Of a stretch of DNA of 64,000 bases, positions 1 through 39,524 are shown piece after piece. The notes beneath the pieces are model-generated. The model had not been told where the DNA came from and did not search any database. It saw nothing but the letters and a program-made list of their open reading frames with translations. A program made the position numbers and the translations under genes. How positions within the stretch are numbered: the first letter of the stretch is position 1; each line of letters begins with the position of its first letter. The DNA is from Actinomycetota bacterium (GTDB lineage Bacteria; Actinomycetota; UBA4738; HRBIN12), in the NCBI GenBank assembly GCA_036374435.1, contig DASUTU010000123.1, positions 1,241 to 65,240 of the forward strand, read 5' to 3'.

Positions 1-676
1 ACGGGTAGGTCGTACGCGCCCCCGCTGGGGGTCGCGGCTCGATCAGATCCTCGACCTCGAGGCCGTGAGCCCGGAACAGCCGGATCCACTCGCCGAAGGG
101 CAACATGAAGTCCACGGTCTCCTGGTCCCACGGACGCATGTCGAAGTAGTCGCGGGACAGCCGGTCGGTGACGCGGTGTTTCGTGTCGTCCCAGCAGACG
201 AAGTGGATGGGGCTCGAGTGGCCGAACGCCAACAGTCCTCCGGGCCGCAGCACCCGCGCTGCCTCGGGGACGGTTCGCCAGGGGTCGGCGAACGTCATGG
301 CCCCGTGATCGCACATGACCACGTCGAACCGCTCGTCGGCGAACGGGAGGCGTTCGGCGTCCCCGGCCACGAACGGCACGCGGCGGCGGACGAGCCGGGA
401 GGCGTGTTCGAGCTGGCGGATCGACAGGTCGAGCCCCACCGGCCGGGCGCCCATCTTCGCGAGCCACCTCGACCACTGGCCGCCCCCGCATCCGAGCTCG
501 AGGACGTCCCTGCCGCGGACGGCGCCGAGCACCCGCAGGCGCGACTCGGGGATCGACCACACCCCCCAGGCGGGGGTCCGGCGGCCGAGCTGGGCGGCGT
601 GTTCGGCCTGGTACCGAGCGCTCTCCGCGTCCCAGTACCGGCGGTTCTTGCGGACGTGGCGGGCGCTCCGGCTCAC
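1..676 (-). CDS. class I SAM-dependent methyltransferase (partial; 3' end runs off the window)
   Basis: The minus strand opposite listed ORF 65..847 translates to [85 protein letters not shown]... This contains the glycine-rich SAM-binding motif I (LELGCGAAQW) and the acidic motif (VGLDLS). The GTG start at 676 overlaps the TGA of the upstream gene (GTGA). No stop codon appears before position 1. Confidence 0.6.
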
Positions 677-1899
677 CCGGCGTCCAGCCAGCCGCCGTCG
701 CGCTCGTGGCGGGCCGCCACGATGCCCGCGGCGATCGAGAGCGCGATCTCCTCCGGCCGGCGACCCCCGAGGTCCAACCCCACCGGCGACCGGATCCGGC
801 CGATCGCGACCTCGTCGAGCCCCATCGCGCGGAGCTCCTCGAGGTAGGGGCCGACGTGCCCGCGGCTGCCCATCACCCCCACGAAGCGCGCCGGCGAGCG
901 CACGACCTCGGCGAGGAGCTCGGCGATGCCGGGCTCGTCGTGATCGGTGAAGACGACGTCGGTGCGTTCGTCGAGCTCGACGTCCCCGGTCGTGGAGGCG
1001 ACCCGGCCGGGCTCGGCGCGGTCGCGAGCGGTGACGCGTTCGGCCCGCGGCTCGAGCAGCACGGTCTCGTCGCCGAGGACCGCGGCGTGCCGGCGGAGCT
1101 CCCGCGCCACGTCGGTGGCCGAGACCACCACGAGGGTGGACCGCAATGTCGGCGGGTCGAAGAACACGACCACCTCGCCCTGCTCGTGGGTGTAGCGGAG
1201 GCTCCGCGGGGTGCCGGCCTTTGCGATCTGCGCGGCGTCGCGGACGGCGGCCTCGTCGAACTCGGCGCACCCGAGGGTGCCGTGCACCTCCCCTCCGGGG
1301 ACGATGCGCATGGCGTTGCCCACCGCGCAGGGCGGGGAGCCCATGACCTCGACCGCCCGCACGTCCACCCAGCGCCGAGGAGCTTCGGGTTCGCGGCGAT
1401 GCCCGGTGGGGTGTTCGCCGGTTCGGCCGCCGAGCACCTCGACGGCGTGGGGCAAGAGTGGCAGCACCGCCTCCAGGCTCTCTCGCACCCCGTTCGGGCT
1501 CCCCGGAAGGTTGACGATCAGCGTGCTCCGGCGCGTGCCGACGACCGCGCGGGACAGCGCCGCCAGCGGCGTCTTGTCGAGGCCGGCGCGGCGCATCAGC
1601 TCGGCCAGGCCCGGCGCCTCGCGGTCGAGCACGGCCCGGGTCGCTTCCGGGGTCACGTCGCGAGGCCCGAACCCCGTCCCGCCGGTGGTGACGACGAGAG
1701 GGATCGCGCGGGCGTCGGCGAGCTCACGCAGGAGCGACTCGATCTCGAGCTGCTCGTCCGGCACCACGGCGCGTTCGGCCACCTCGAACCCGGCCTCGGC
1801 CAGGAGGCGCTCGGCGGCATCGCCGGACTCGTCCACCCGGGTGCCGTGCGTGACGCCGTCGGAGACCGTGATCACCGCCGCCGTCCGAGGGACGTCCAT
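673..1899 (-). CDS. fusion of MogA/MoaB-type molybdopterin adenylyltransferase (N-terminal) with an XdhC/CoxI-family Moco insertion chaperone (C-terminal)
   Basis: A single 408-aa ORF with no internal stop. The N-terminus ([33 protein letters not shown]...[19 protein letters not shown]...NLPGSPNG) is MogA/MoaB-like. The middle ([42 protein letters not shown]) matches the XdhC_CoxI N-domain. The C-terminus ([60 protein letters not shown]) matches the XdhC Rossmann-like C-domain. Confidence 0.75.
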
Positions 1900-3220: not shown

Positions 3221-3457
3221 ATGGAGTGGATCGACGAGCTGGCCGAGGCGCTCGGCGAGGAGCCGCTCTCGGCCGAGCAGACGACGCGGCTGCTGAGCTC
3301 GGCACGGGCGGTGGCCCACCGCGTGGAGCGCCGCGTGACGCCCCTCGCGGCGTTCCTGCTCGGCGTCGCGGTGGGCCGCCGGACGGCCGCCGAGCGGGAC
3401 CTCGCTCTCGCGGAGGTCCTCGAAGCACTGGAGGCCCGCCTGCCCTCGGACCACTGA
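3221..3457 (+). CDS. small DUF6457-like protein, of the kind commonly found next to moaA in Actinobacteria
   Basis: ATG at 3221 preceded by GGAGGAACGT. It gives a 78-aa product MEWIDELAEALGEEPLSAEQTTRLLSSARAVAHRVERRVTPLAAFLLGVAVGRRTAAERDLALAEVLEALEARLPSDH, ending 27 nt before moaA. Confidence 0.55.
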   Translation: MEWIDELAEALGEEPLSAEQTTRLLSSARAVAHRVERRVTPLAAFLLGVAVGRRTAAERDLALAEVLEALEARLPSDH

Positions 3458-3483
3458 CGAGGATCGGGGTACGCTGGAGGTTC

Positions 3484-4512
3484 ATGTCCGAGACCTGGCT
3501 GCCGCCGTCCACCCCACCCCCGCCGTCCGGGCCGCTCGTCGACACGTTCGGGCGGGTCGCCGACGACCTGCGGATCTCGGTGACGGACCGCTGCAACTTC
3601 CGCTGCACGTATTGCATGCCGGCCGAGGGCCTGGCCTGGCTCCCGAAGTCGGAGATCCTCACGTTCGAGGAGCTCACGCGGCTGCTGCGGCTGTTCGTCC
3701 GGCTGGGGATCGGATCGGTCAAGGTCACCGGCGGCGAGCCCACGGTCCGGGCCGACCTCCCGGACCTGGTCCGGATGTTCCGCGAGGCGGCGCCCGGCAT
3801 CGACCTGTCGATGACGACCAACGGCGTGTTGCTCGACCGGCTCGCGGTTCCGCTTGCCGAGGCGGGCCTGGACCGCGTCACGATCTCGCTCGACTCGCTC
3901 CTGCGCCACCGGTTCCAGGAGATGACCCGCCGGGACGCCCTCGACCGCGTGCTCGCGGGCGTCCGGGCCGCCGAGGCGGCCGGCCTGGTGCCGATCAAGA
4001 TCAACTGCGTCGTGATCGGCGGTACGAACGACGAGGAGGTCGTGGACTTCGCCGCGTGGTCCCGGGAGCACGGTCACGTCGTCCGGTTCATCGAATACAT
4101 GCCGCTCGACGCCGACCACGCGTGGGAGCGAGCCAAGGTGGTGCCCTCGGCCCGGATCCTCGACGCCATCGACGCGGTGTATCCGCTGCGGCCCGCGGGG
4201 CCGGACCACGAACCGGCCACCAGCTACCGCTTCGCCGACGGTTCCCCCGGAGGGATCGGGGTGATCGGGAGCGTGACCGAGCCCTTCTGCGAGAGCTGCA
4301 ACCGGCTTCGGCTGACCGCCGAAGGCGAGGTGCGCTCGTGCCTGTTCGCGCTCGAGGAGACCGACCTGCGGGGTCCGATGCGTGAGGGCGCGAGCGACGC
4401 CGAGCTCGAGTCGTCGATCAGAACGACCGTCTGGCGCAAGTGGTCCGGCCATCGGATCAACCACCCGGACTTCGTGCAGCCCGAACGCAGCATGTCCGCG
4501 ATCGGCGGCTGA
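3484..4512 (+). CDS. moaA: GTP 3',8-cyclase MoaA (radical SAM)
   Basis: The ATG at 3484 follows GGAGG. It carries CNFRCTYCMP (CxxxCxxC radical SAM motif), a C-terminal auxiliary cluster CESCNRLRLTAEGEVRSCLF, and the GG tail typical of MoaA. Confidence 0.93.
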   Translation: MSETWLPPSTPPPPSGPLVDTFGRVADDLRISVTDRCNFRCTYCMPAEGLAWLPKSEILTFEELTRLLRLFVRLGIGSVKVTGGEPTVRADLPDLVRMFREAAPGIDLSMTTNGVLLDRLAVPLAEAGLDRVTISLDSLLRHRFQEMTRRDALDRVLAGVRAAEAAGLVPIKINCVVIGGTNDEEVVDFAAWSREHGHVVRFIEYMPLDADHAWERAKVVPSARILDAIDAVYPLRPAGPDHEPATSYRFADGSPGGIGVIGSVTEPFCESCNRLRLTAEGEVRSCLFALEETDLRGPMREGASDAELESSIRTTVWRKWSGHRINHPDFVQPERSMSAIGG

Positions 4513-4513
4513 G

Positions 4514-5236
4514 CTACGCTCCCGCGTCGACCGCCGCCAGCCGGGCGAGCCCCGCGATGTTCTTGAGCACGAACCGGCGTCCCTCCCGCTCAACGAACCC
4601 TCGCCGCTGGAAGTCCGAGAGGATCCGGGTGACGTTCTCGCGGCTTCCGCCGCAAAGGCTGGCGAGGTCGGCGTGGGTCACGACCGCGGGAACGACGGCC
4701 CCGTTCTCGGGAAGCTCGTCGAGCGAGGGAGCGACGAGCTGGAGCAAACGCTTCGCCACGCGCCCCTTGAGATCGAGGTAGAGCAGGTCCTCGACGAAGG
4801 CCTCCTGCGCTTGGACCTGGCGGGCCAGGGCCCGCAGCAACGCCAGCGCGGCGGCCGGCTCGTCGGTCAGGAACTCGAGGAACGTGGCGGCCGATACCCG
4901 CCACACCGTGGACTCCTCAAGAGCGATCCCGGCCCCGGTGCGCGGCATCCCGCCCAGGACTCCCAGCTCACCGAAGAACTGCGAGCGGTCCAGCGTCGTG
5001 TGGAGCTGCCGATGCCCGCCGACGGAGAGCGAGCTGATCTCGACGCGGCCGTCCACCAGGAAGAACACGTCCGGGGACTCTTCGCCCTGATGGAAGAGGT
5101 AGGTCCCTCGCCGATACGTCCGGATCGATCCGCGTTCCGCCAGGCGGGCCACGGTCTCCCGGGACGCGTCCTGCAAGAGTGGTGCGCCGGCCATCTCGTC
5201 GACGAGGGCGGCGGATCGGACGGTGGCTGCGCGCAC
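4514..5236 (-). CDS. Crp/Fnr family transcriptional regulator (cNMP-binding domain plus C-terminal HTH)
   Basis: N-terminal cNMP-binding domain (FFGELGVLGGMPRTGAGIALEESTVWRV). C-terminal HTH (THADLASLCGGSRENVTRILSDFQRRGFVE). Confidence 0.85.
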   Translation of the reverse strand: MRAATVRSAALVDEMAGAPLLQDASRETVARLAERGSIRTYRRGTYLFHQGEESPDVFFLVDGRVEISSLSVGGHRQLHTTLDRSQFFGELGVLGGMPRTGAGIALEESTVWRVSAATFLEFLTDEPAAALALLRALARQVQAQEAFVEDLLYLDLKGRVAKRLLQLVAPSLDELPENGAVVPAVVTHADLASLCGGSRENVTRILSDFQRRGFVEREGRRFVLKNIAGLARLAAVDAGA

Positions 5237-5286
5237 GAACCGAAAGCGTAGTCAACCGCTCGCCCGAGGCATAGCCCGCACATGAC

Positions 5287-5316
5287 GGCGGACCCGCCTC
5301 TCAGGGCGGGTCCGCC
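5287..5316. terminator. perfect 12-bp stem / 6-nt loop hairpin (GGCGGACCCGCC-tctcag-GGCGGGTCCGCC)
   Basis: Seen directly in the sequence. It lies downstream of the minus-strand small basic ORF and upstream of the crp-family gene. Confidence 0.5.
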
Positions 5317-5338
5317 GAGGGATTCGACCGAGGTTCGG

Positions 5339-5479
5339 CTATCTCGCCGCGCGCTTCGTGACGCGCTTGGAGACGCGCTTCAGCGACCGCTTCGTCACGC
5401 GGGTCGCCGCCGCCTTCTTCTCGCCGCCCTTCGTGCTCTTGGAGGGCGCCGCCTTCGGCGTGATCTTCTTCTCCGCCAC
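5339..5479 (-). CDS. small lysine/arginine-rich basic protein (histone-like tail composition), hypothetical
   Basis: GTG at 5479 with a GAGGGGGG Shine-Dalgarno 7 nt upstream. Product VAEKKITPKAAPSKSTKGGEKKAAATRVTKRSLKRVSKRVTKRAAR. The listed ORF 5339..5557 extends upstream without an RBS. Confidence 0.35.
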   Translation of the reverse strand: MAEKKITPKAAPSKSTKGGEKKAAATRVTKRSLKRVSKRVTKRAAR

Positions 5480-5583
5480 CTGCTCACCCCCCTCGCCACG
5501 TCCGGGCCCTTGGGCCACTCCTGCTGGTCGGCATCCTGCACCGCCCGGCACATCCAAGATGTGCCGGGCGTCACCACCTCCGG

Positions 5584-5623
5584 CGTGACGTGTGTCACAC
5601 GGGGGGATGTGACGCCCGTCACA
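5584..5623. promoter_or_regulatory. two adjacent CRP/FNR-type boxes: cGTGA-cgtgtg-TCACa (5584-5599) and TGTGA-cgcccg-TCACA (5608-5623)
   Basis: Direct match to the TGTGA-N6-TCACA consensus. Located about 105-145 nt upstream of the small basic ORF start and just downstream of the DUF2180 ORF. Confidence 0.55.
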
Positions 5624-5625
5624 CG

Positions 5626-5844
5626 TCAGGGGTCCGTCTCGACCTCGGGGAGATCGATCGGGTCCGGCCGGGGGGTGCAGGCACCGCAGTAGAGCGCGTC
5701 CTCCACGACGAGGGCTCGCGTCGTGTTCGCGCCTCGGAAGAGCTCCAGGATGAACGGCTGGGTCTCGACGTGGTCCTCACAGACGCCGCGGCCGCAGAAG
5801 CGACAGCTCCCCACGGCGGTTCGTCGGCAGTGCCAGCAGTCCAT
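5626..5844 (-). CDS. DUF2180-like zinc-ribbon protein (6 Cys in CxxC pairs)
   Basis: MDCWHCRRTAVGSCRFCGRGVCEDHVETQPFILELFRGANTTRALVVEDALYCGACTP. Same strand as the upstream S2P gene and 25 nt downstream of it. Confidence 0.6.
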   Translation of the reverse strand: MDCWHCRRTAVGSCRFCGRGVCEDHVETQPFILELFRGANTTRALVVEDALYCGACTPRPDPIDLPEVETDP

Positions 5845-5869
5845 CGCCCTCCTCCCGCCCGATCCCGGG

Positions 5870-8194
5870 CTAATGCTGCCAGGTTCGGTGGAGCGCTGCC
5901 GACGGGTTCAACGTGCCGCGGGTGAACGCCCCCGCGATGGCGCGATCGAAGCCATCGCGGCCCAGGCGGAACAGGCGGGCCGGCGTCCGGGCGATCACCG
6001 AGGCCGTCCTCGGCGCGTCGGTCAACAACGCCACCTCGCCGAAGTGAGCCCCAGCCCCCAGCGTGCCCACCCGCTCGCCGTCGCGGACGATCTCGACTTG
6101 GCCGGAGCCCAGGCCGTAGAACGCGTCCCCCTCCTCGCCCTGCCGGATGATCGTCTCGCCCGGACCGGCGTTGATCCAACGCCCCTGCGACACCACCGCG
6201 GCCAGGTCGTCGGCGCCGAGGGACGCGAAGGCCTCCACCACCCTCAGCTCGGCCGCCGCCTGGAGCGTGGGCGAGAACTGCGGGACCTCGATGGCCCGGG
6301 CCAGCAGCCGATCGAACGTGTTGGCGTCGACCACGAACAACTCGGCGTCTTCCACCGGGCGCACGGTCGCCGATCTCGGCGCCCGGTCGACGAGCCCGAG
6401 CTCCCCGAACGACTCTCCGCGCCCGAGCGTTCGCAAGACCCGGTCGCCCCCCGCCTCCGGATCCTCCTCCACCACCACGAACGTGCCGGACCGGACCACG
6501 TAGAAGGCCTCGGGCCGATCCCCCTGGCGGAACACCGGTTTGCCGGCCGGATACGCTCGTAGCCGAACGCGGCCCGCGAGGTCGGACAACAGGTCCTCCC
6601 CCAGGTCCTCGAACACCGGGAGCGCGTCGATCATCCGCGCGGCCTCCACTCGCCACCTGGTCTCGAGCCGGAAGGTGACGGCCCGAACCAGGGCCCTCGC
6701 CCGTCGCGCAAGCGATCGCAGCACGGCGATCCCCGCCCGAACGACCGGGCCCGTCACGAACAGGACCGCCGCCAGGAGCAGCAGGCGCGTCCCGATCCCG
6801 CCGTGCCACAACGTCCGGACCAGGCCGCCGAAGACGGCCTCCCAGAAGAACGCGGACCAGTACAACGAGAGCACGGTGAACGCGATGCCGAGCGCCGCGT
6901 AGAGCCCGATGCCGATCTCCTGCTTCGTGAACCGCTCTCGGCGACGGAGCTTGCGCCACAGGTCGTACCGGGCGAACCTCAGCGACCGGGGGCGCAGATC
7001 GGGGACCTGGATCGCGTCGGACAAGATGAAGTAGCCGTCGAGCTCGAGAAGCGGAACGAGGTTGAGGAAGATCACGAAGTAGTTGAGCAGCGCGAACTTG
7101 TACAGGAGCGAGGCCGGCGCGGAGTCCGGGAACGCCCACACGGCCAGCGACGCCGCTCCGGCCACGACCAGCTCGGAGTACGGACCGGCGAACGCCTGCG
7201 CGATCCGTTGACGCCGACCGAGCATCAATGCGTCGGAGGCCTCCACGAAGAACGCCGGCGACCCGAAGTAGATCATGAAGCCGGCGCTCTTCACGCGCCG
7301 GCCGTGGCGAACGAGCACCAGGGCGTGCGCGAGCTCGTGCACGAACGTGAGCACGTAGTTCATGGCGAGCAGGAGCAGCGTCGCCGTGACGGCGTCGCCG
7401 TCCGACAAGGAGAATCGCCCCTCTCGGTAGACCGCGACGAACGCGACGAAGCCGAGCACCGCCACGAATCCCACGGGGACCGACACCCACGGGAGAAAGA
7501 ACCACTTCAAACCGGAGCGATAGAACCAGTCGACGAGCCGGTGGGCGCCCCGCCAGTCGACCGAGAGGGTCTTCGCGAACTCTCGCGCCTTCCGTCGGGC
7601 CTTGGACACCGGATCGAGCGCTCGCCGGACCGCCGCGTCGACGTCGACGAACGGGGCGGCGAGGAACCCGCCTTCGTGGAGCTCCCGGACCAGATCGGCG
7701 ACGCCCGAGAGCTCGAGATCGCCGGAGGTCCGGAACCGCTCCATCACGATCTCCTTCACGGTCCTCGTCCCGTCCATCAGGCGAACCACCTCGACCTCTC
7801 CGGCTTCGAGGCGGTAGTGGAGCTGCTCCCGGGGGTTGGCGATCATCGCGTAGTCGTTGCCCCAACGGAGCGTGAACTCCTTCAGCTCCACGTCCGGGGC
7901 GAGCCGGGGTCGCAGGCGCGCCGGGTCCAGCCTCCGCTCGAGGGCCTCCCACACCCCCGCTGCCGGTTCGGCCTCGGATGGCGAGCCCATCCGCTCCTCG
8001 GAGAGCACGGGGCCGTGAACGGGCGCCGGCGGGCTCGACCGGTCGGCCTGGCTCGACGTCGGCGCCGTGTCCAGCCGCGTTCGGAGCAGCGAATAGACGG
8101 ACGTGCGGGGCGCCCGGCGGCGAGAGGCATACAGGTTACCGACGAAGGCTCCCACGAGAAGGACCAGCGTGGGGGTGCCGAGGGCGATCTCCAC
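5870..8194 (-). CDS. multidomain membrane protein: PqqD/RRE-like domain + site-2 protease (peptidase M50) core + two cNMP-binding domains
   Basis: The HELAHALV HExxH motif and the LELDGY motif sit within multiple TM helices. The segment EFTLRWGNDYAMIANPREQLHYRLEAGEVEVVRLMDGTRTVKEIVMERFRTSGDLELSGVADLVRELHEGGFL fits the PqqD/RRE pattern. The two C-terminal CAP-type domains carry FGELGLVD...RSATV and FGEVALLTD...RTASV. The GTG start at 8194 (GAGGA 7 nt upstream, high GC3, N-terminal TM helix) is preferred. An alternative ATG at 7993 also has GAGGAG. Confidence 0.8.
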   Translation of the reverse strand: MEIALGTPTLVLLVGAFVGNLYASRRRAPRTSVYSLLRTRLDTAPTSSQADRSSPPAPVHGPVLSEERMGSPSEAEPAAGVWEALERRLDPARLRPRLAPDVELKEFTLRWGNDYAMIANPREQLHYRLEAGEVEVVRLMDGTRTVKEIVMERFRTSGDLELSGVADLVRELHEGGFLAAPFVDVDAAVRRALDPVSKARRKAREFAKTLSVDWRGAHRLVDWFYRSGLKWFFLPWVSVPVGFVAVLGFVAFVAVYREGRFSLSDGDAVTATLLLLAMNYVLTFVHELAHALVLVRHGRRVKSAGFMIYFGSPAFFVEASDALMLGRRQRIAQAFAGPYSELVVAGAASLAVWAFPDSAPASLLYKFALLNYFVIFLNLVPLLELDGYFILSDAIQVPDLRPRSLRFARYDLWRKLRRRERFTKQEIGIGLYAALGIAFTVLSLYWSAFFWEAVFGGLVRTLWHGGIGTRLLLLAAVLFVTGPVVRAGIAVLRSLARRARALVRAVTFRLETRWRVEAARMIDALPVFEDLGEDLLSDLAGRVRLRAYPAGKPVFRQGDRPEAFYVVRSGTFVVVEEDPEAGGDRVLRTLGRGESFGELGLVDRAPRSATVRPVEDAELFVVDANTFDRLLARAIEVPQFSPTLQAAAELRVVEAFASLGADDLAAVVSQGRWINAGPGETIIRQGEEGDAFYGLGSGQVEIVRDGERVGTLGAGAHFGEVALLTDAPRTASVIARTPARLFRLGRDGFDRAIAGAFTRGTLNPSAALHRTWQH

Positions 8195-24081: not shown

Positions 24082-24552
24082 TCAGCTCAGGCCGGAGAGA
24101 AGTTGCTCCGGCGTGAAGACCGTCGGGCCGGCGGTGCGCTGGTGGCGCTCCACCAGGTCCGCCACGGAGGTCTCCTCGAAGACCCGCTGGATGGCGCGGG
24201 CGACCTCGCCCCAGAACCCCTGGAGGCCGCATCTGGAGTCGGCGAAACACGTGTGATCGGTGGGCTCGAGGCAGAACATCGGGTAGAGCTGACCCTCGAT
24301 CGCGTCGGCGATCTGGGCCACCGAGATCTCCTCGGGGGCCCCGGCCAGCCGGCAGCCCCCACCGGCACCCCGGAAGCTCTGCACGAGCCCCGCCTTGTGC
24401 AGCGCCCCGAGCTGCTGTTCCAGGAACCGAAGCGGGATCTGCTGCGCCGTGGCGATCTCCCTCGCCGGAACGAGCGTGGGGCTCTCGCGGCGCAAGGCGA
24501 GCTCGATCATCGCCCGCATGGCGTATTCGAGCTTCTGCGAGATCTTGAGCAT
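24082..24552 (-). CDS. Rrf2-family transcriptional regulator with a 3-Cys cluster (C-x7-C-x5-C), probably an Fe-S or redox sensor
   Basis: N-terminal winged HTH (MLKISQKLEYAMRAMIELAL...). CLEPTDHTCFADSRC. Confidence 0.8.
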   Translation of the reverse strand: MLKISQKLEYAMRAMIELALRRESPTLVPAREIATAQQIPLRFLEQQLGALHKAGLVQSFRGAGGGCRLAGAPEEISVAQIADAIEGQLYPMFCLEPTDHTCFADSRCGLQGFWGEVARAIQRVFEETSVADLVERHQRTAGPTVFTPEQLLSGLS

Positions 24553-32071: not shown

Positions 32072-34252
32072 ATGCTCGATCTCGAGCCCGGGGATCGCCG
32101 GGCGGCGCAGGAAGACGATGAGCTGCGCTCCGTCGCCCAGCTCCGCTTCCTCCACGGCCTCGCCCCGCGCCTGAACGCGCTCGGTGACGTGGAGGCCATC
32201 GCCGGAGCCATCACCGACGAGCTGCGGACCCTGATCGACTACCACAACTGCCGCATCTACCTGCTGCAGAACGATGGGGTCACCCTGTGGCCCATCGTCT
32301 TCCGCGGTTCGCTGAGCGAATACGAAGGCGAGACACTCGACGAGCTCGTCACGGTGGTCGGCGAGGGCATCACCGGGCGGGCCGTGGAGAGCGGCTCGAC
32401 GTATTACGCCCCCGACGCCCTGAACGACCCGACCGCGGTGCAGATCCCCGGCACGTCGGAGATCGACGAGTCGGTGCTGGCGGTGCCCCTGTCCATCGGG
32501 GACCGGGTGACCGGCGTGATCGTTCTGTCGAGCCTCGGGATCGACCAGTTCGACCAGGAGGACGTCCGGGTCCTGGAGGTGCTGGCCTCCCACGCGGCGG
32601 TCGCGTTCGAGAACGCGCGGCTGCTGCAGCAGGAGCGCGAGGCGGCCAGGACGGCCTCGGCGCTGCTCGGCCTCTCGCAGGCGCTGACGGGGACCCGCGA
32701 CGTCGTGACGGTCCTGGAGCGGGTCACGGCCGCGGTTCCGTCGCTGGTCGAGGCCGAGGCGGTGGTCGCCTATCTTCGGGATCCGCAGACCGGCGGCTAT
32801 CGCCTCGCCACCCACCGCGGGCTCCCCGACGGCGTCCTCCGCAACGTCGAGCGGGTCGACCCGAAGATGGCGGCGGCGCTGCTCAATTCGGTGTCGCATC
32901 CGTTCCAGCTGGTCCCCGAGGACCTCGCGTGGGTGCCCCGCGGGTACCTGTTCTTCGACGAGCCGCGGGCCTGGTTGATCGTCCCGCTCCGTTGGGAGAC
33001 GGACGAGCTCGCGGTGGTCATCGCGGTGGCCCACGACGCCGAGGCCCGCTATACCGACCGTGACCTGACCTTGGCGCGTGGCATCGGCGACATCGCGTCG
33101 CTCGCACTCGGAAGCGCTCGGCGGTTCCACGAGCTGGAGCGGTTCCACGAGCTCGTGGACAGCCTGGACGCGATCTTCTGGGAGGCCGAGCCCCACAGCC
33201 TGCGGTTCACGTTCCGCTCGCGCAAGGCGTACACCACCCTGCTGGACGGGGGCGACGCCGACGCTCCGCCACCCGCGTGGGGGGACCACGTCCACCCCGA
33301 GGACCGGTCCCAGGCCGTCCGCGCGCTCCGCGAGAGCATCGCGACGCCCGGGCACCAGCTGAGCCTCGAGTACCGCGCGGCGGGACGGAACGGAGACCCG
33401 ATGTGGCTCCGGGACCTGGTCCACGTCACGACGTCTCCACAGGGCGAACCGGTCGTCCGAGGGTTGATCGTGGACATCACGGCCCGCAAGAAGGCGGAGG
33501 AAGCCCTTCGGCGCAGCGAGCAGAAGTATGCGGAGGCGTTCCGCAGGGAGCGGGAGGCCGCCCATCGGCTCCGGACCCTGGACGAGATGAAGAACACCTT
33601 CCTCCAGGCCGTATCGCACGACCTGCGGACCCCGCTCACCTCGATCCTGGGGTCGGCCGTGACCCTCGAACACGCGGGGTTCGAGATCCCGCGCGAAGAC
33701 GCGATCGACCTCCTGCACCGGATCGCGGCCAACGCCCGAAAGCTCGAGCGCCTGCTGTCGGACCTGCTCGACCTCGACCGGCTGCAACGAGGCATCGTCT
33801 CCCCGCAGCGGCGGCGGATCGACGTCGCCGAGCTCGTCACGCGGGTCGTCCGCGAGTCCGACATGCTCAACGGCCGGCAGATCGAGCTGGAGACGGATCG
33901 GGTGGTCGTGAACGTGGATCCGGCGAAGGTCGAGCGGATCGTCGAGAACCTCGTCGCCAACGCCGGGCGGCACACCCCTCCGGAGGCCCCGTTGTGGATA
34001 CGGGTGTGCGGCCAGGACGGCGGCGTCCTCCTCGCCGTCGAGGACGCCGGACCCGGCGTGGCGGACGACCTGAAAGAGGCCATCTTCGAACCCTTCCGCA
34101 GCGCCGAGCTGGCTCCCAGCCCGTCACCCGGGGTCGGCATCGGGCTGTCCCTGGTGGCGCGATTCGCCGAGCTCCACGGCGGACGGGCCTGGGTGGAGGA
34201 CCGGCCCGGGGGCGGGTCTTCCTTCCGGGTCTTCCTGCCCGACGCCGCCTGA
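32072..34252 (+). CDS. cytoplasmic sensor histidine kinase (GAF-GAF-PAS-HisKA-HATPase), orphan
   Basis: No TM segment. Two GAF domains, a PAS domain, H-box VSHDLRTPLTSI, and an ATPase domain (GVGIGLSLV). The start (ATG 32072 or GTG 32069) is uncertain and lacks a clear RBS. Confidence 0.85.
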   Translation: MLDLEPGDRRAAQEDDELRSVAQLRFLHGLAPRLNALGDVEAIAGAITDELRTLIDYHNCRIYLLQNDGVTLWPIVFRGSLSEYEGETLDELVTVVGEGITGRAVESGSTYYAPDALNDPTAVQIPGTSEIDESVLAVPLSIGDRVTGVIVLSSLGIDQFDQEDVRVLEVLASHAAVAFENARLLQQEREAARTASALLGLSQALTGTRDVVTVLERVTAAVPSLVEAEAVVAYLRDPQTGGYRLATHRGLPDGVLRNVERVDPKMAAALLNSVSHPFQLVPEDLAWVPRGYLFFDEPRAWLIVPLRWETDELAVVIAVAHDAEARYTDRDLTLARGIGDIASLALGSARRFHELERFHELVDSLDAIFWEAEPHSLRFTFRSRKAYTTLLDGGDADAPPPAWGDHVHPEDRSQAVRALRESIATPGHQLSLEYRAAGRNGDPMWLRDLVHVTTSPQGEPVVRGLIVDITARKKAEEALRRSEQKYAEAFRREREAAHRLRTLDEMKNTFLQAVSHDLRTPLTSILGSAVTLEHAGFEIPREDAIDLLHRIAANARKLERLLSDLLDLDRLQRGIVSPQRRRIDVAELVTRVVRESDMLNGRQIELETDRVVVNVDPAKVERIVENLVANAGRHTPPEAPLWIRVCGQDGGVLLAVEDAGPGVADDLKEAIFEPFRSAELAPSPSPGVGIGLSLVARFAELHGGRAWVEDRPGGGSSFRVFLPDAA

Positions 34253-34280
34253 CCCGACGACCCCGGCCCGGGAAAGGGGT

Positions 34281-34321
34281 GAGGGCCGGGAGGCGGTGGG
34301 GGACTGAACCTCCCGGCCCTC
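34281..34321. terminator. 13-bp stem hairpin GAGGGCCGGGAGG-N15-CCTCCCGGCCCTC between convergent genes
   Basis: Seen in the sequence between the kinase end (+) and the DsrE-like gene end (-). Confidence 0.5.
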
Positions 34322-34402
34322 GTTGTCGGGGTGCGATGGACTTATCCCGACACCCGTGGGCGATCCGGGGCGCGACCGCGTCGCGGCCCCGGACCCCCGA
34401 TC

Positions 34403-34930
34403 TCAGATGAACAAGGTCACGGCGTCCTGCGCCTCCATGAGCATCGTGGTGGCTCCGGCTGGCTCGGCCAGCCCGTCGATCATGTCCTCACGTTTGAGCC
34501 CGAGCAGGTCCATCGTCATCTGGCACGGCACGAGCTTCACGCCGAGCTCGACGGCCATCTCGAGCAGCTCGCCCGGGCTGGCGACCTTGTGGTCCTTCGC
34601 CAGGCGCTTCATCATCGCCGGCCCGGCTCCGGCGAAGTTCATCTGCCCCAGCTTCAGGTGGTCGATACCGGGGCGATCCATCATCGCCATCATCTTCTGC
34701 ATCCAGTTGTCGCCGGTGATGCGGCGGTTGTCCTTCACCACGGCGAAGAGCCCCCAGAACGTGAAGAAGACGGTGGTCTCCATGCCCATGGCGGCCCCGG
34801 TGGTGGCCATGATCATCTGCGGCCACACGCGGTCCAGGTCGCCGGACCAGGCGATGATCACCAGCCGCTGGTGAGGCGCGTGTGGATGGTCGTGCGCCGG
34901 GACCGTGAGCTCGGCCTCCTGAACGGTCAT
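34403..34930 (-). CDS. DsrE/DsrF-like (COG2210) sulfur-relay family protein
   Basis: ATG at 34930 after GGAAGGGGTGAGG. Product MTVQEAELTVPAHDHPHAPHQRLVIIAWSGDLDRVWPQMIMATTGAAMGMETTVFFTFWG... Confidence 0.7.
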   Translation of the reverse strand: MTVQEAELTVPAHDHPHAPHQRLVIIAWSGDLDRVWPQMIMATTGAAMGMETTVFFTFWGLFAVVKDNRRITGDNWMQKMMAMMDRPGIDHLKLGQMNFAGAGPAMMKRLAKDHKVASPGELLEMAVELGVKLVPCQMTMDLLGLKREDMIDGLAEPAGATTMLMEAQDAVTLFI

Positions 34931-34935
34931 CCGCC

Positions 34936-35169
34936 TCACCCCTTCCGGATCACGAACCGGTACACGCCGTCGGCCTCGCCGCTCTCGATGAGCTCGTTCT
35001 GGGTGCTCTTGCACCACGCGGCGAAGTCGGCGACCGAACCCGGATCGGTGGCGATGGCCTCGATCAGGTCGCCTGCCTCCAGTTCCTTGGTGGCCTGCGC
35101 CGTCTTGACGATCGGAAGCGGACAGGAAAGCCCCTTCAGGTCCAGGCTGCGCGCGATCTGCATGCTCAT
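34936..35169 (-). CDS. TusA-like sulfurtransferase (CPxP motif)
   Basis: MSMQIARSLDLKGLSCPLPIVKTAQATKELEAGDLIEAIATDPGSVADFAAWCK... RBS GGAAGGAG. The ATGA overlap with the upstream gene indicates coupling. Confidence 0.8.
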   Translation of the reverse strand: MSMQIARSLDLKGLSCPLPIVKTAQATKELEAGDLIEAIATDPGSVADFAAWCKSTQNELIESGEADGVYRFVIRKG

Positions 35170-36344
35170 GTCCGACTCCTTCCCGTGGGGATCGGCAGGG
35201 GCAGCTCGTCGGGCAGTCGCCCCTGCGGAACGGTCTCCCAGTAGATCCGGTTGAACATCCACTTGGCCGAGTGCCACAACAGGTTCGGCTGCGGTGGCGC
35301 CGGCGGGTGTTCGTAGTCGAAGCGCAACACGGTGGCCCGGCGGTCGCCGGTCTCGAGGAAACACATCACCCGGCCCCCGTAGTTCGTCTTCGGCGCGCTT
35401 CCCCGCACCAGGCTGGCGATCCGGCTGGCGACGACCGGCGCCTCGAAGTGCGCGGTCGACCCGCTCTTGCTGATCGGCAGGTTGGTGGCGTCACCCAGGG
35501 CGAAGATCCGCTCGTGCCCCTCGACCTGCAGGGTGTGCCGGTCGGTCGGCAACCATCCCGAGGCGTCCCCGAGGTGGGAGTCGATCACCACCTGCTGCCC
35601 GCGGTGCGGCGCGACGAGGACCAGGAGGTCGTACTCCTCCTTCTCGCCTTCGAGCGAGGACACGGTCTGCGCGTCCGGGTCGACCTCCTCGACGTTGAAG
35701 AAGGTCCGGAGCTCGATCCCGCGCTCCTCCATGATCGGCTGGATCACCTTGCTGGCCGACTCGATCGTGAAGGCCCGGTTCAGTGGCGACAGCAGCGTCA
35801 CGGAGCTGCGGTCCCGGATGCCCCGGCGGCGAAGGTACTCCTCGAGCATGAACACGAACTCCACCGGCGCCGGCGGGCACTTGTAGGGGATGCCCGCGAT
35901 GCCCACGAGGATGCGACCGCCGCGGAACCGTCGAAGGGCCTCGCGCAGGCGCTGGGCGTCGTCGAGCGAGTAGAAGCCGTGGGCGCCCGCGACCAGCCCG
36001 GGGATCTCCTGCGGCATCAGGCGGGCGCCCGTGGCCACGACGAGGTAGTCCCATTCCAGGCTCCCGCCGCGATGGAGCTGCACCGTGCCGACCTCGGGAT
36101 GGATCCGGACCGCCGGCTCGACCACCAGGTGCACGTCCTTGCGCAGCAGGGACCGTTCGTCGCGCACCAGCCAGCGGCCGTTGGCCTGGCCGAGCGCCAC
36201 GTACAGGTAGCCGGGTTGGTAGTGATGCATCCCCGTGGGGTCCACCACGGTGACCTCGGCCTCCCGGCCGAGGCTCTTGGACAGGAGGTTCGCGGCGAGC
36301 GTCCCGCCGACCCCCCCACCCAGCACCACCACCTGCGCGGGCAT
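35166..36344 (-). CDS. FAD-dependent pyridine nucleotide-disulfide oxidoreductase, sulfide:quinone oxidoreductase-like
   Basis: N-terminal GGGVGG FAD motif. Conserved Cys in KCPPAP and MCFLETGD. About 390 aa, the usual SQR size. Confidence 0.65.
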   Translation of the reverse strand: MPAQVVVLGGGVGGTLAANLLSKSLGREAEVTVVDPTGMHHYQPGYLYVALGQANGRWLVRDERSLLRKDVHLVVEPAVRIHPEVGTVQLHRGGSLEWDYLVVATGARLMPQEIPGLVAGAHGFYSLDDAQRLREALRRFRGGRILVGIAGIPYKCPPAPVEFVFMLEEYLRRRGIRDRSSVTLLSPLNRAFTIESASKVIQPIMEERGIELRTFFNVEEVDPDAQTVSSLEGEKEEYDLLVLVAPHRGQQVVIDSHLGDASGWLPTDRHTLQVEGHERIFALGDATNLPISKSGSTAHFEAPVVASRIASLVRGSAPKTNYGGRVMCFLETGDRRATVLRFDYEHPPAPPQPNLLWHSAKWMFNRIYWETVPQGRLPDELPLPIPTGRSRT

Positions 36345-36350
36345 CGGAGC

Positions 36351-36590
36351 TCAGCGGGCCTTCTGCACGACGAAGCGGGCGAAAGCGTCCTCCTCGACGA
36401 CCTCGACCATCTCGTGGCCGGCCTTCGAGATCCACGCCGGGATGTCGGTGCGAGAACCCTCGTCCGAGGACAACACCTCCAACACGTCGCCGACCGTCGC
36501 CTCACGGATCGCTCCGATCAGCGACATCAGCGGACCCGGGCACGGCATGCCTCGAGCGTCGATCGAGCGCGTCACGTTCGCCGTCGTCAT
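36351..36590 (-). CDS. TusA-like sulfurtransferase (CPxP motif), second copy
   Basis: MTTANVTRSIDARGMPCPGPLMSLIGAIREATVGDVLEVLSSD... RBS AAGGAGG. Confidence 0.8.
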   Translation of the reverse strand: MTTANVTRSIDARGMPCPGPLMSLIGAIREATVGDVLEVLSSDEGSRTDIPAWISKAGHEMVEVVEEDAFARFVVQKAR

Positions 36591-36604
36591 CGTCGCCTCC
36601 TTGG

Positions 36605-37009
36605 TCAGATGAAGGTCACGGGGCCGTCGACGTCCAGGAAGAACGACGCCACCCCCTCCTGGCCGTCGACGAGGGGATCCAGGTCGTCGACCGACAGGTC
36701 GAACATCTCCATCGAGAGCGAACACGCCTTGATGCCGACGTCGCCGATCTCTTTGGCCTGCCGGAGGATCTCGCTCCAGTGCTGCCCTCCGTGGCGCTGG
36801 TACGCCGCCAGCCCCTCGGCGCCCGCTTCGGGCGCGACCCCGTGTTCCTTGTGGATCCGGTCGGCCCGGAACGCGTCGAGGGCCCAGTACTGGAGGAACA
36901 CGTTCACTTTGCGGCCCATGGCCGCGGCACCGGCCGTCAGCACGGCGGCGGCGTTGAGCTTGTCGTCCGTACCCGAGAACAGCACCAGCGACAACGTGGT
37001 CTCGTCCAT
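36605..37009 (-). CDS. DsrE/DsrF-like sulfur-relay family protein, second copy
   Basis: MDETTLSLVLFSGTDDKLNAAAVLTAGAAAMGRKVNVFLQYWALDAF... The upstream 165 codons of the listed ORF are shadow. Confidence 0.65.
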   Translation of the reverse strand: MDETTLSLVLFSGTDDKLNAAAVLTAGAAAMGRKVNVFLQYWALDAFRADRIHKEHGVAPEAGAEGLAAYQRHGGQHWSEILRQAKEIGDVGIKACSLSMEMFDLSVDDLDPLVDGQEGVASFFLDVDGPVTFI

Positions 37010-37223
37010 CTCGCACCCCTGTGTGGGTTCACAACGTCGTACCGTTCGCCATGTACTGTCGCCGGAATCCGGGGGTGGGAAAGGGGTCGGTCCGCCCGGC
37101 CCGGACGGGACCTTCGGTCCGAACCGCGGGCACGAGGCAGTTCGTGGTCGGGAGTGGTCCGTTCGGCGGTTGTCTGCACCCCGGGGCAGCCGGTAGCGTG
37201 GCGCGGGTTCCCCGCCCCCTGCT

Positions 37224-38432
37224 ATGGCCGACCCCCAAGACCAACCAGAGATGTCCGACGACGCCACCCAGCCCGGGGACCCCGTCACCACCGTGACCAG
37301 TACGGCGGCCGGAGCTGGCGCCGGTTCGACCACGGCGTCGGTTGGAGCCGAACGCGGTCGCGACTGGGCGGCCGTGGCACTCAAGCTGGCGTTCCTCGCC
37401 GTCGCGCTGTTCTTGTTCGTGCTGGCCATCCAGCTGATGAAAGAGGGCGCAAAGGCGATCGGCCCCACGCTCAGCGGGAGTCCCTTGTTCAGCAATGCGT
37501 TCTCCACGCTCGGGGCCGGGTGGCTCGGTGCCTACGTGGTGCTGTCGGGATCCCCGGTGGCGGCCGTGGCGTTGAGCCTGTTCGTGGGCGGCGCCGCCAC
37601 AGAGCTTCAGACGTTCACGATGTTGTCGGGCTCGAGGCTCGGAGCCTCGTTCGTGGTGCTGTTGGTCGGGTTCCTCTACGCGATCCGCAATCGAGGCCGA
37701 AACCGAAGTGAGTCGATCGGCATGGGAATCCTGGCGCTCGGGCTGACGGCGATCGTCTACGTCCCCGGCATGTTCCTGGGCTACGGGATCCTGAAGGCCG
37801 GGTGGCTGGACGGGGTCCGGCTGCAGGCTTCGGGGGAGTTCCAGTCCGTCGTCGATCGCATCTGGGGACCTGCTCTGGACGGATTGACCCGTCTCCCCGA
37901 CTGGGCCCTCCTGCCGGTGGGCCTCGCGATCGTCCTGCTGTCGTTCCGGCTGTTGGACCGCGTCTTGCCTCAGCTCGACGGCGAACGCCACGGCGGCAAA
38001 CGCCTCGAGTGGTTGACTCGCCCGTGGCCGATGTTCCTTCTCGGCTGCGCCGTGGCGACCCTGACCCTCTCGGTCTCGGTCGCGCTCACCCTGCTGGTTC
38101 CCCTGGCCAGCCGCGGCTACATCAACCGCCGCCAGGCCATCCCGTACATCATGGGCGCGAACATCACGACGCTCGCCGACACGCTCGTCGCCGCCATGGT
38201 GCTCGGGAACGCGGTGGCGGTGCAGATCGTTCTGGCGCAGGCGATCGCGGTGTCGGTCGTGTCCCTCGCGCTGCTGGCGTTCGCCTACCGGCCGATGGTC
38301 ACGGCGATCCTTCGGATGGACGAATGGGTCATCGCCTCAAACCGGCGCCTGTGGCTGTTCGTCGCCGTGCTGTTCGTGATGCCGGCGATCTTCCTCACGT
38401 CCGGCATCTGGATCGGCCCGATCGCCGGCTGA
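37224..38432 (+). CDS. integral membrane protein with two internal repeats, Na/Pi-cotransporter (PNaS)-like fold; putative transporter
   Basis: About 10 TM helices. Two homologous halves each end in a PNaS-like motif (LSGSRLGASFVV / IMGANITTLADTLVAAM). Divergent from the sulfur cluster. Confidence 0.5.
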   Translation: MADPQDQPEMSDDATQPGDPVTTVTSTAAGAGAGSTTASVGAERGRDWAAVALKLAFLAVALFLFVLAIQLMKEGAKAIGPTLSGSPLFSNAFSTLGAGWLGAYVVLSGSPVAAVALSLFVGGAATELQTFTMLSGSRLGASFVVLLVGFLYAIRNRGRNRSESIGMGILALGLTAIVYVPGMFLGYGILKAGWLDGVRLQASGEFQSVVDRIWGPALDGLTRLPDWALLPVGLAIVLLSFRLLDRVLPQLDGERHGGKRLEWLTRPWPMFLLGCAVATLTLSVSVALTLLVPLASRGYINRRQAIPYIMGANITTLADTLVAAMVLGNAVAVQIVLAQAIAVSVVSLALLAFAYRPMVTAILRMDEWVIASNRRLWLFVAVLFVMPAIFLTSGIWIGPIAG

Positions 38433-38445
38433 CCGGGACGCCCGC

Positions 38446-39388
38446 TCAGGCGGGACAGTCCGAGCGTCCGCTGCTCGGCGAGAGCATGCACGCCGAGACG
38501 TCCACGGCCTCGAACACGTCCGCGGGAACGGACTTGAGCTGGTCCAGCAGGCGGTTGCGCCAGTGTCGGCCGCGGGTCCCCTGGAAGTACCAGTCCGACC
38601 CCTTGTCGGCCACCATCATCCCGAACCGCTTCATGGCGCGCAGGATCACCCGAGCCTTGGGGCTGAACCCGGACAGGTCGACGTCCGACCGCAGCCGGAA
38701 CCGAGCCCCCCCGGCGGGCAGTCCGAGTCGGCCGCCGGCCTCGTGGCGGGCCGGCCAGACGTACGCGTCGGTGGTGCAGGAGGCCGTGAACCGGAGGGCG
38801 TGGTCGATCCGGCCCGACTTCACCTCGTCCCAGCGGACCAAGCCGGCGAAGATGGGCAACCCTGCCGCGTCCGCCGAGGTCCAGCCGTCGGGGGCGAAGC
38901 CGATTGCGGTCGAGGTCCCAGATGGCCCCGCTCCCGGCCGACGGGTCACCGTCGTTCCACTCGGCCGCAAACAGCTCGTAGAGGCGGCACGTGCCGCGTT
39001 CGACCATGAGGGCATGGCGGTCCGACCCACCTTCGACGGGCGTTCGCGCATCGAACGGATACGGGCCGCGGTTGCTCTCGTCCTCGTAGAGGAACTCGAT
39101 GGCCACTTTGGGGTGCATTCGCGCCACCGTCTCGAACGGCAGCCCGTAGGCCGGCGGGCCGAAGTCCGGGTGCAGGTTCCTCGACGAGGCATTCATCGCG
39201 TCCAGCCACGTCCCGCTCATCTCGTGGACGGGGAGGCGGTCGATCCTCGTGTTCCAGATGTTGGTTGCGGGGAACACGCGAGATCGCGTGCCGGGGACCT
39301 CGGCCGCCGACGCCGGCGCGAGCGAGCCGGCCGCGAGGGACGCCGCCACGAGAGCTGCGGCCGCTCGACGCCGGGACCGACCGATCAC
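38446..39388 (-). pseudogene. secreted hypothetical protein with an apparent frameshift near 38880 (authentic pseudogene or sequencing error)
   Basis: Signal peptide MIGRSRRRAAAALVAASLAAGSLAPASAAE, then a coherent protein through ...GSGAIWDLDRN in one frame. The coherent sequence continues in the adjacent frame (IGFAPDGWTSADAAGLPIFAGLVRWDEV...) down to the stop at 38446. The continuation of the first frame is Arg/Gly-rich nonsense. Confidence 0.45.
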
Positions 39389-39449: not shown

Positions 39450-39524
39450 TGGAGCCGGCGGTCGGATTCGAACCGACGACCACCCGCTTACAAGGCGGGC
39501 GCTCTGCCCCTGAGCTACGCCGGC
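39450..39524 (-). tRNA. tRNA-Thr (anticodon UGU), CCA encoded
   Basis: Minus-strand sequence GCCGGCGTAGCTCAGGGGCAGAGCGCCCGCCTTGTAAGCGGGTGGTCGTCGGTTCGAATCCGACCGCCGGCTCCA. 7-bp acceptor stem, D-arm GCTC/GAGC, anticodon loop CTTGTAA, T-arm GTCGG-TTCGAAT-CCGAC. Confidence 0.9.

Follow-up and report, generated by a model that had tools for sequence, protein, structure and literature searches.

What does a sulfide:quinone oxidoreductase (SQR) do when its gene is enclosed on both sides by genes for sulfur-carrier proteins? This question is raised by a cassette with the gene order DsrE-TusA-SQR-TusA-DsrE, found in a stretch of 64,000 nucleotides from an uncultured soil bacterium of the Actinomycetota (assembly GCA_036374435.1, contig DASUTU010000123.1, positions 1,241 to 65,240), hereafter called the window. 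An earlier note, made from the letters of the sequence alone, had described the cassette, with a divergent membrane protein beside it, as a candidate sulfide/persulfide detoxification or sulfur-mobilisation unit of unusual composition. Homology shows that it encodes an SQR-family flavoenzyme with the flavin adenine dinucleotide (FAD) fold and a Cys pair, two TusA proteins and two DsrE2B-like proteins in a tightly coupled operon. On these grounds we consider it rather probable that the cassette is an operon for sulfide oxidation and for the relay of the resulting sulfane sulfur as protein persulfides.

The cassette and its proteins

The five genes, in the order of the operon, are:

36605-37009, minus strand: DsrE_L, short DsrE2B-like sulfur carrier (134 aa, PF13686)
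36351-36590, minus strand: TusA_L, TusA-family sulfur carrier (79 aa, PF01206)
35166-36344, minus strand: SQR, type III-like sulfide:quinone oxidoreductase (392 aa, Pyr_redox_2 and FCSD_central)
34936-35169, minus strand: TusA_R, TusA-family sulfur carrier (77 aa, PF01206)
34403-34930, minus strand: DsrE_R, long DsrE2-like sulfur carrier (175 aa, PF13686)

The junctions from DsrE_L to DsrE_R measure 14, 6, -4 and 5 nt, the start of TusA_R overlapping the stop of SQR (ATGA). Four of the five starts have a Shine-Dalgarno-like motif ahead of them, and the start codon of DsrE_L is backed by 'AGGGGTGCGAGATG', which is conserved in ~30 related loci. The GC content is ~70% throughout the window and 0.69 in the cassette; since this value matches that of the window and the flanking chromosomal genes are syntenic, recent horizontal transfer of the cassette could be ruled out.

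The central flavoprotein matches the Pfam families Pyr_redox_2 (E 4.6e-23) and FCSD_central (27.3 bits, cutoff 27), and carries the N-terminal GxGxxG FAD motif in the form 'VLGGGVGGT' (residues 7-15). In NCBIfam it is matched over its full length by NF049943, 'type III sulfide quinone reductase, selenoprotein subtype' (E 7.4e-108, 361 bits, i.e. below the cutoff of 525 set for this 'exception' model), with the runner-up family at 2.5e-15. Among PDB structures human SQOR is the best match (E 4.8e-43), followed by Acidianus SQR (1.8e-23), flavocytochrome c sulfide dehydrogenase (FCSD, ~1e-21) and the SQRs of Acidithiobacillus ferrooxidans and Aquifex (~1e-18); NDH-2 scores 2.3e-11, against 1e-17 to 1e-23 for SQRs and FCSDs other than SQOR. 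The protein has only two Cys residues, Cys156 ('YKCPPAP') and Cys328 ('VMCFLETG'), both of which align with the catalytic Cys residues of human SQOR and are invariant in 42 loci. In the human enzyme the redox-active pair that faces the FAD is C201/C379. Cys156 and Cys328 correspond also to the canonical pair of type III SQRs, Cys159/Cys339 in the numbering of the cable-bacteria protein (PMC13047784). An AlphaFold2 model, built from a shallow alignment, has a mean predicted local distance difference test score (pLDDT) of 71 and a predicted template modelling score of 0.74, with a poorly defined C-terminus; a helix predicted at residues 355-371 ('LLWHSAKWMFNRIYWETV') has a pLDDT below 50. In type III SQRs it is amphipathic helices near the C-terminus that attach the enzyme to the membrane. 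When this model was submitted to Foldseek, ranks 1-23 were all occupied by SQRs or FCSDs (TM-score up to 0.74). Transmembrane segments were predicted in none of SQR, DsrE_L and DsrE_R. By sequence and predicted fold, the flavoprotein is thus a member of the SQR family and not an NDH-2, and it appears closest to type III, as judged from the match to NF049943 below its cutoff.

Both small carriers are members of the TusA family by PF01206 (cutoff 28.6 bits): TusA_R matches with E 9.5e-23 (80.3 bits) and TusA_L with E 8.1e-22 (77.3 bits). Each has the Cys-Pro-x-Pro motif, with Cys17 of TusA_L in 'MPCPGP' (invariant in 46 loci) and Cys16 of TusA_R in 'LSCPLP' (invariant in 43 loci). Judged by NF001423, which describes the E. 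coli-type TusA with a cutoff of 78 bits, neither TusA_R (50.3 bits) nor TusA_L (42.5 bits) is predicted to be the tRNA-thiolation equivalog. Both larger carriers match PF13686 (DsrE/DsrF/DsrH-like, cutoff 25 bits), DsrE_R with E 2.9e-46 (157.7 bits) and DsrE_L with E 6.9e-14 (52.5 bits), and each has a single Cys: Cys96 in DsrE_L ('IKACSLSME', invariant in 45 loci) and Cys136 in DsrE_R ('LVPCQMTMD', invariant in 42 loci). DsrE_R carries in addition a Met-rich insertion. The best PDB match of both is 2qs7 (DsrE_R, E 1.8e-18; DsrE_L, E 2.9e-21), the DsrE2B of S. solfataricus (Tanabe et al., PMC11094781), with 3pnx as the second match of DsrE_R (E 9.4e-16), and the Cys of each aligns with that of 2qs7 in 'FACSTTME', which is the DsrE active-site position. 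Because 2qs7 is the best match and the one Cys of each protein aligns with the Cys of 2qs7, we classify DsrE_L and DsrE_R, on the strength of these alignments, as DsrE2B-like.

Two other DsrE types were considered and rejected. DsrE2A, with Alvin_2601 as the prototype, has two strictly conserved Cys residues (PMC4175335), and this identity is ruled out by the single Cys of each protein together with scores below the cutoff of the NCBIfam DsrE2 model (NF047629, 210 bits; DsrE_R 92.9 over its full length, DsrE_L 25.4). DsrE3A carries a Cys-x7-Cys motif (PMC4175335), which is found in neither protein, and 2qs7 was matched much better than the DsrE3A-type structure 3mc3.

The composition that the earlier note had read from the sequence is therefore borne out: five co-directional genes with tight or overlapping junctions, two DsrE-like (PF13686) and two TusA-like (PF01206) proteins around a flavoprotein that groups with SQRs, and a conserved Cys in each DsrE-like protein. 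The two observations that would have refuted the note, a flavoprotein grouping with non-SQR NADH dehydrogenases and DsrE-like proteins devoid of the Cys, were not made.

Conservation of the gene order and the divergent neighbours

To place the cassette among its relatives, species-representative genomes were scanned with SQR, which gave 64 loci, and metagenomes with an alignment of DsrE_L, which gave at least 410 contigs, mostly from soil and sediment, of which 80 loci were retained (loci are numbered with the prefix L below). As gene calls based on third-codon-position GC content had given antisense artefacts in loci with 70% GC, each neighbour family had to be confirmed by Pfam or tblastn. 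All genome loci with SQR identities of 69-95% (~48) carry these genes in an unchanged order as far as their contigs extend; they come from metagenome-assembled genomes (MAGs) of uncultured Actinomycetota, from Dormiibacterota and from one 'Acidoferrum' bin. Among the 80 metagenome loci, every contig that is long enough continues as DsrE_L-TusA_L-SQR(-TusA_R-DsrE_R), down to 54-60% SQR identity.

Altogether the complete canonical order occurs in 73 independent genome and metagenome loci among the matches listed (Actinomycetota, Dormiibacterota). Shorter patterns are almost all prefixes ended by contig ends; in one locus (L113) TusA_R and DsrE_R are not detectable. Three loci have a permuted order, DsrE_L-TusA_R-DsrE_R-TusA_L-SQR, in which both carrier pairs stand upstream of SQR: L147 (5001-7730), which is the sole complete one and has the five genes together, and L137 (780-2596) and L141, which end at contig ends. 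The arrangement is not a matter of chance, and because the same five-gene order recurs in 73 loci and the permuted loci keep the carriers with SQR, the conserved order argues for a functional unit.

The six putative active Cys residues of the five proteins are invariant across 42-46 loci, and in every locus TusA_L, TusA_R, DsrE_L and DsrE_R fall into four separate orthologous groups. The two TusA proteins are 36% identical and the two DsrE proteins 26%. These identities, together with the separate orthologous groups in every locus, indicate that the doubling of the carriers is ancient and maintained, and not the outcome of recent duplication. The two TusA/DsrE pairs are ancient non-redundant paralogues that probably have different jobs, since each is conserved as an orthologous group of its own. 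One may speculate, by analogy with DsrEFH, that DsrE_L and DsrE_R form a hetero-oligomer, or else that the pairs serve two sulfur destinations.

Environmentally, the cassette is common, being carried by at least 410 metagenome contigs and more than 40 species-level MAGs. These counts suggest that uncultured soil Actinomycetota and Dormiibacterota may routinely oxidise or buffer sulfide.

Upstream of DsrE_L the relatives differ. The features in question are:

37010-37223, 214 nt: divergent intergenic region, presumed operon promoter region
37224-38432, plus strand: PNaS-like polytopic membrane protein, divergent (402 aa, PF02690)
In L021, L045-L047, L082, L083, L085, L087, L092, L102 and L125 (e.g. 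L046, 2471-2737, minus strand): CsoR-family repressor, divergent
In L033, L034, L117, L118, L133, L136, L142 and ~12 more loci with more distant cassettes (e.g. L133, 4561-4899, minus strand): ArsR/SmtB-family repressor, divergent

In the intergenic region an Rfam scan gave no family match, and no sigma-70-type consensus was detected in window positions 34000-39000. When the upstream regions of the relatives are aligned, a ribosome-binding site is seen to be conserved, but within the clade of the window no operator stands out convincingly.

The earlier note had described the divergent membrane protein as a two-repeat transporter-like protein beside the five genes. It is divergent and has ~9-10 hydrophobic segments, with one match to PF02690 (Na_Pi_cotrans, 35.6 bits, cutoff 29.1, residues 238-345). 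A second repeat is suggested by paired motifs visible by eye, LSGS and LSVS taking the place of QSSS, but an internal repeat is not significant according to hhalign. Its score in the NCBIfam model Na_Pi_symport (31.7) is below the cutoff of 50. The protein adjoins the cassette only in the closest clade (~20 genome and ~10 metagenome loci among the matches listed), where the order is CarD, IspD, IspF, SpoU methylase, [amidohydrolase], membrane protein, cassette, GAF-PAS histidine kinase, NAD-GDH. As it is present only where the whole region is syntenic and is replaced by regulators elsewhere, we regard it as no more than a possible member of the unit.

These regulators belong to two families. 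In 11 other loci an 89-aa CsoR-family repressor (PF02583, E 9.1e-24) is encoded divergently, ~150 nt upstream of DsrE_L; like CstR, it has two Cys residues and lacks His at the position of the copper ligand. In ~20 more loci, including those of Dormiibacterota, a divergent ArsR/SmtB-family repressor is present (NF033788, 76 bits, cutoff 55), with a conserved C-terminal Cys-x3-Cys ('VCELMCASL') in a pattern unlike that of the SqrR/BigR Cys residues. Both families include known persulfide sensors, namely CstR among the CsoR-type proteins and SqrR, BigR, SoxR and sHdrR among the ArsR/SmtB-type proteins.

On the other side of the cassette, convergent to it and 150 nt from the stop of DsrE_R, lies a gene for an orphan GAF-PAS-HisKA-HATPase histidine kinase of ~726 aa (32072-34252, plus strand). 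In at least 23 genome loci the kinase is a neighbour of the cassette, and it has no adjacent response regulator. NreB, a PAS histidine kinase encoded beside sqr in Bacillus licheniformis, senses H2S (PMC9918477); by analogy a regulatory link between the kinase and the cassette is possible, the alternative being mere synteny. In many relatives one or two small Ala/Glu-rich genes without Pfam match (~100-170 aa) lie between DsrE_R and the kinase (e.g. L065, 12153-13047; L077, 7739-8104); the window has at this place (34253-34402) only the 150-nt gap.

Known systems and the proposed function

Comparison with described systems reveals precedents for much of the arrangement. In Methylacidiphilum fumariolicum SolV the operon MFUM_v2_0219-0221 encodes a type III SQR, TusA and DsrE2; it is up ~1.7-fold in H2S-adapted cells, and oxidation of sulfide to sulfur as a means of detoxification has been proposed (PMC10205796). 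By gene order and description, this is the order of SQR-TusA_R-DsrE_R, although the SolV operon has three genes, without a second DsrE-TusA pair upstream, and its host is a verrucomicrobial thermoacidophile. The 'sulfur island' of Metallosphaera cuprina comprises TusA (Mcup_1722), SQR (Mcup_1723) and DsrE4 (Mcup_1724), the DsrE4 group being defined as 'encoded downstream of SQR' (PMC4175335). Here too TusA lies directly upstream of SQR and a DsrE-type gene directly downstream, but the system is archaeal and has one carrier of each kind where the cassette has two. DsrE_R, encoded downstream of SQR, has the position of a DsrE4, and its best PDB match is the DsrE2B 2qs7.

The (rhd-)tusA-dsrE2 cluster, widespread in sulfur oxidisers (e.g. 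Alvin_2599-2601 of Allochromatium vinosum), likewise has tusA followed by dsrE2, with the sulfur-mobilising enzyme encoded just upstream. In A. vinosum, however, a rhodanese has this role and the sulfur continues to DsrEFH, DsrC and rDsrAB, whereas the cassette has SQR and no linked Dsr or sHdr; the DsrE2A of A. vinosum also has two conserved Cys residues against one each in DsrE_L and DsrE_R. In Staphylococcus aureus, CstA, encoded next to SQR, is a fusion of rhodanese, TusA and DsrE domains, and in the Bacillus yrkD-J/sqr-pdo cluster yrkE/F/I occur with sqr-pdo. These systems share with the cassette the combination of SQR with TusA- and DsrE-type sulfurtransferase modules and, in some relatives of the cassette, a CstR-like repressor of the CsoR family; they differ in having a type II SQR, a rhodanese, a persulfide dioxygenase and the sulfite exporter TauE. 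Pfam scans of ~40 proteins of the window revealed neither persulfide dioxygenase nor rhodanese, in accordance with the earlier note, and no sHdr, Dsr, Sox or TauE, only housekeeping genes. None of the hallmarks of a cst-type operon beside SQR (CstR, a rhodanese-containing CstA, the persulfide dioxygenase CstB, TauE) is found among these proteins of the window.

Thus both the SQR-TusA_R-DsrE_R half and the TusA_L-SQR junction have precedents, and the 'unusual composition' of the earlier note was an overstatement, since SQR, TusA and DsrE-type proteins already occur together in Methylacidiphilum and Metallosphaera. What seems not to have been described before is merely that the carrier pairs are doubled: a full-text literature search of limited coverage returned no description of the five-gene arrangement. 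The cassette is an elaborated form, with doubled and mirrored carrier pairs, of a known sulfide-handling cluster that is common in soil and sediment metagenomes. The advance would be incremental, because the components and half of the arrangement were already known.

Relatives that share only 35-45% identity with the flavoprotein occupy other gene combinations, e.g. TusA-SQR-rhodanese-glutaredoxin with TusA, DsrE and TrxB nearby on a Chlorohelix plasmid, TusA-SQR-DUF1641 near YeeE/YedE and a PiT-type 'phosphate' transporter in Halopiger, and SQR-DUF1641 in Pseudomonas aeruginosa pKLC102. Elsewhere, relatives of SQR are flanked by TusA, DsrC, DsrE2, rhodanese and thioredoxin-system genes. In an Anaerolineae MAG (L044, 1590-4453) we also found an SQR-like gene followed by genes for DUF1641, a DsrC/TusE-like protein (C-terminal '...PTGCI') and a DsrE2-like protein, where DsrC replaces TusA.

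A reading of the cassette as a sulfide/persulfide module is reasonable. SQR, as a peripheral-membrane flavoprotein, would oxidise H2S/HS- and pass two electrons via FAD to the quinone pool, the quinone of Actinomycetota being menaquinone. The sulfane sulfur would be left as a persulfide on the Cys pair of SQR and, with no release of polysulfide and no loading of a low-molecular-weight thiol by SQR, would be taken over as a protein persulfide by the co-translated TusA proteins, at the Cys of their CPxP motifs. The two DsrE2-type proteins, with their one Cys each, would then receive or retain it, so that reactive sulfur would be kept sequestered until passed to acceptors encoded elsewhere. SQR would in this scheme stand where rhodanese does in rhd-tusA-dsrE2, as the sulfur-mobilising enzyme. 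By analogy, such a role would fit the H2S induction of the SolV operon and the CsoR/CstR- or ArsR-type repressors in the relatives.

Several findings weigh against this reading. In NCBIfam, none of the SQR, TusA and DsrE2 scores reaches its curated cutoff, no persulfide-type regulator adjoins the cassette in the window, and the scanned proteins of the window include no persulfide dioxygenase, sHdr, Dsr, Soe or sulfite exporter as partners. The DsrE2B of M. cuprina is the characterised type closest to both DsrE-like proteins. In vitro that protein neither reacted with any sulfur compound offered to it nor bound TusA (PMC4175335), and the induction of the SolV operon was only ~1.7-fold (PMC10205796).

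An alternative is that the cassette serves sulfur assimilation and cofactor supply, the persulfide of an SQR-like enzyme loading TusA for molybdenum cofactor (Moco), thiolated tRNA, Fe-S and thio-cofactors and thereby bypassing cysteine desulfurase, with detoxification as a secondary effect. The TusA of E. coli is indeed a biosynthetic sulfur carrier (tRNA thiolation, Moco), the cassette lies among housekeeping genes with no sulfur-oxidising enzymes nearby, and MoaA and a MoaB/XdhC fusion are encoded in the same window, though ~30 kb off. We nevertheless regard this alternative as unlikely: the TusA proteins reach 50 and 42 bits against the E. coli equivalog cutoff of 78, not one of more than 100 loci has a linked gene for a biosynthetic acceptor, the repressor families of the relatives fit stress-type regulation, and the SolV homologue responds to H2S exposure (PMC10205796).

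It also seems improbable that the flavoprotein is no sulfide oxidase in vivo and instead reduces or otherwise converts carrier-bound persulfide or polysulfide (TusA-SSH, DsrE-SSH), or acts on another small sulfur or selenium compound, the substrate being presented by the carriers. The catalytic Cys pair and the overall fold match those of bona fide SQRs, and the type III SQRs of Caldivirga and Sulfurimonas oxidise sulfide with quinone as the electron acceptor (PMC10205796), although the relatives at 35-45% identity occur with genes for DUF1641, methyltransferase, glutaredoxin and thioredoxin reductase, which are not sulfide-oxidation partners. There is also a weak NCBIfam similarity to YedF and to the 'N-terminal to SelD' family (TIGR03169), but the scores are far below the cutoffs and neither selD nor other selenium genes lie nearby, by which a role in selenium metabolism was ruled out.

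A further proposal, the handling of thiosulfonates or oxyanions, would have the carriers bind groups derived from thiosulfate or tetrathionate, the PNaS-like protein move a sulfur oxyanion and SQR supply or consume an intermediate. M. cuprina DsrE3A and TusA carry thiosulfonate (PMC4175335), the divergent membrane protein has its Pfam match in a family of anion cotransporters, and the TusA-SQR-like pair of Halopiger lies near YeeE/YedE and the PiT-type 'phosphate' transporter; yet we give this proposal little chance, as DsrE_L and DsrE_R resemble DsrE2B and not DsrE3A (2qs7 far better than 3mc3, no Cys-x7-Cys) and most cassette-bearing loci are without the membrane protein. Finally, the symmetry might mean nothing, an SQR-TusA-DsrE module having come to lie beside an unrelated DsrE-TusA pair and both being kept only by shared ancestry. 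Many loci do come from related lineages with conserved flanks, but the cassette stays where its flanks change wholly (membrane protein, CsoR-type or ArsR-type repressor upstream), it persists to 54-60% SQR identity, its five genes stand together in the one complete permuted locus (L147), and its junctions are tight or overlapping, all of which makes such an explanation very improbable.

Returning to sulfide oxidation with a persulfide relay, one may take the scheme further, to a closed and fully protein-bound relay in which a type III SQR hands sulfur to a dedicated TusA and the two TusA/DsrE2B pairs, possibly with a DsrE_L/DsrE_R hetero-oligomer, split it between two fates. We put this forward tentatively, as a rather unlikely possibility. 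If true, it would provide a first function for DsrE2B-type proteins, so far inert in vitro, and define a route of sulfide handling that is characteristic of the abundant uncultured Actinomycetota and Dormiibacterota of soils. The physiological acceptor of the sulfane sulfur generated by SQR and the role of DsrE2-type proteins are both poorly settled, and because the compact cassette holds only SQR and four candidate protein acceptors, it offers a clean system to reconstitute.

Other genes of the window

Downstream of the membrane protein gene lies a gene for a secreted protein without Pfam match (38446-39388, minus strand). It is split at a C-run by a frameshift close to 38893, so that the alignment covers residues 25-194 in frame -1 and 166-314 in frame -2. 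The family is intact in L003 (342 aa) and L065 (323 aa), and the split gene is either a pseudogene or an assembly error. Next to it is a gene for tRNA-Thr with the anticodon TGT (39450-39524, minus strand), the only RNA gene found in the window by ARAGORN and Rfam and the sole Rfam family there.

An Rrf2-family regulator is encoded at 24082-24552 (minus strand). In several relatives (L022, L024, L026 and L032) its homologue is located just a few kb past the cassette, accompanied by a response regulator and a LytR_C protein, a proximity that probably reflects synteny alone. The Moco genes comprise a MoaB/Mog-type domain fused to XdhC domains (673-1899, minus strand) and MoaA (radical SAM and Mob_synth_C; 3226-4512, plus strand), ~30 kb from the cassette, and no linkage to it was seen in the other loci. 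Beside them, at 4514-8194 (minus strand), a Crp-family regulator is encoded alongside a protein of 774 aa with an unusual architecture, in which a Peptidase_M50-like membrane region is joined to two cyclic-nucleotide-binding domains.

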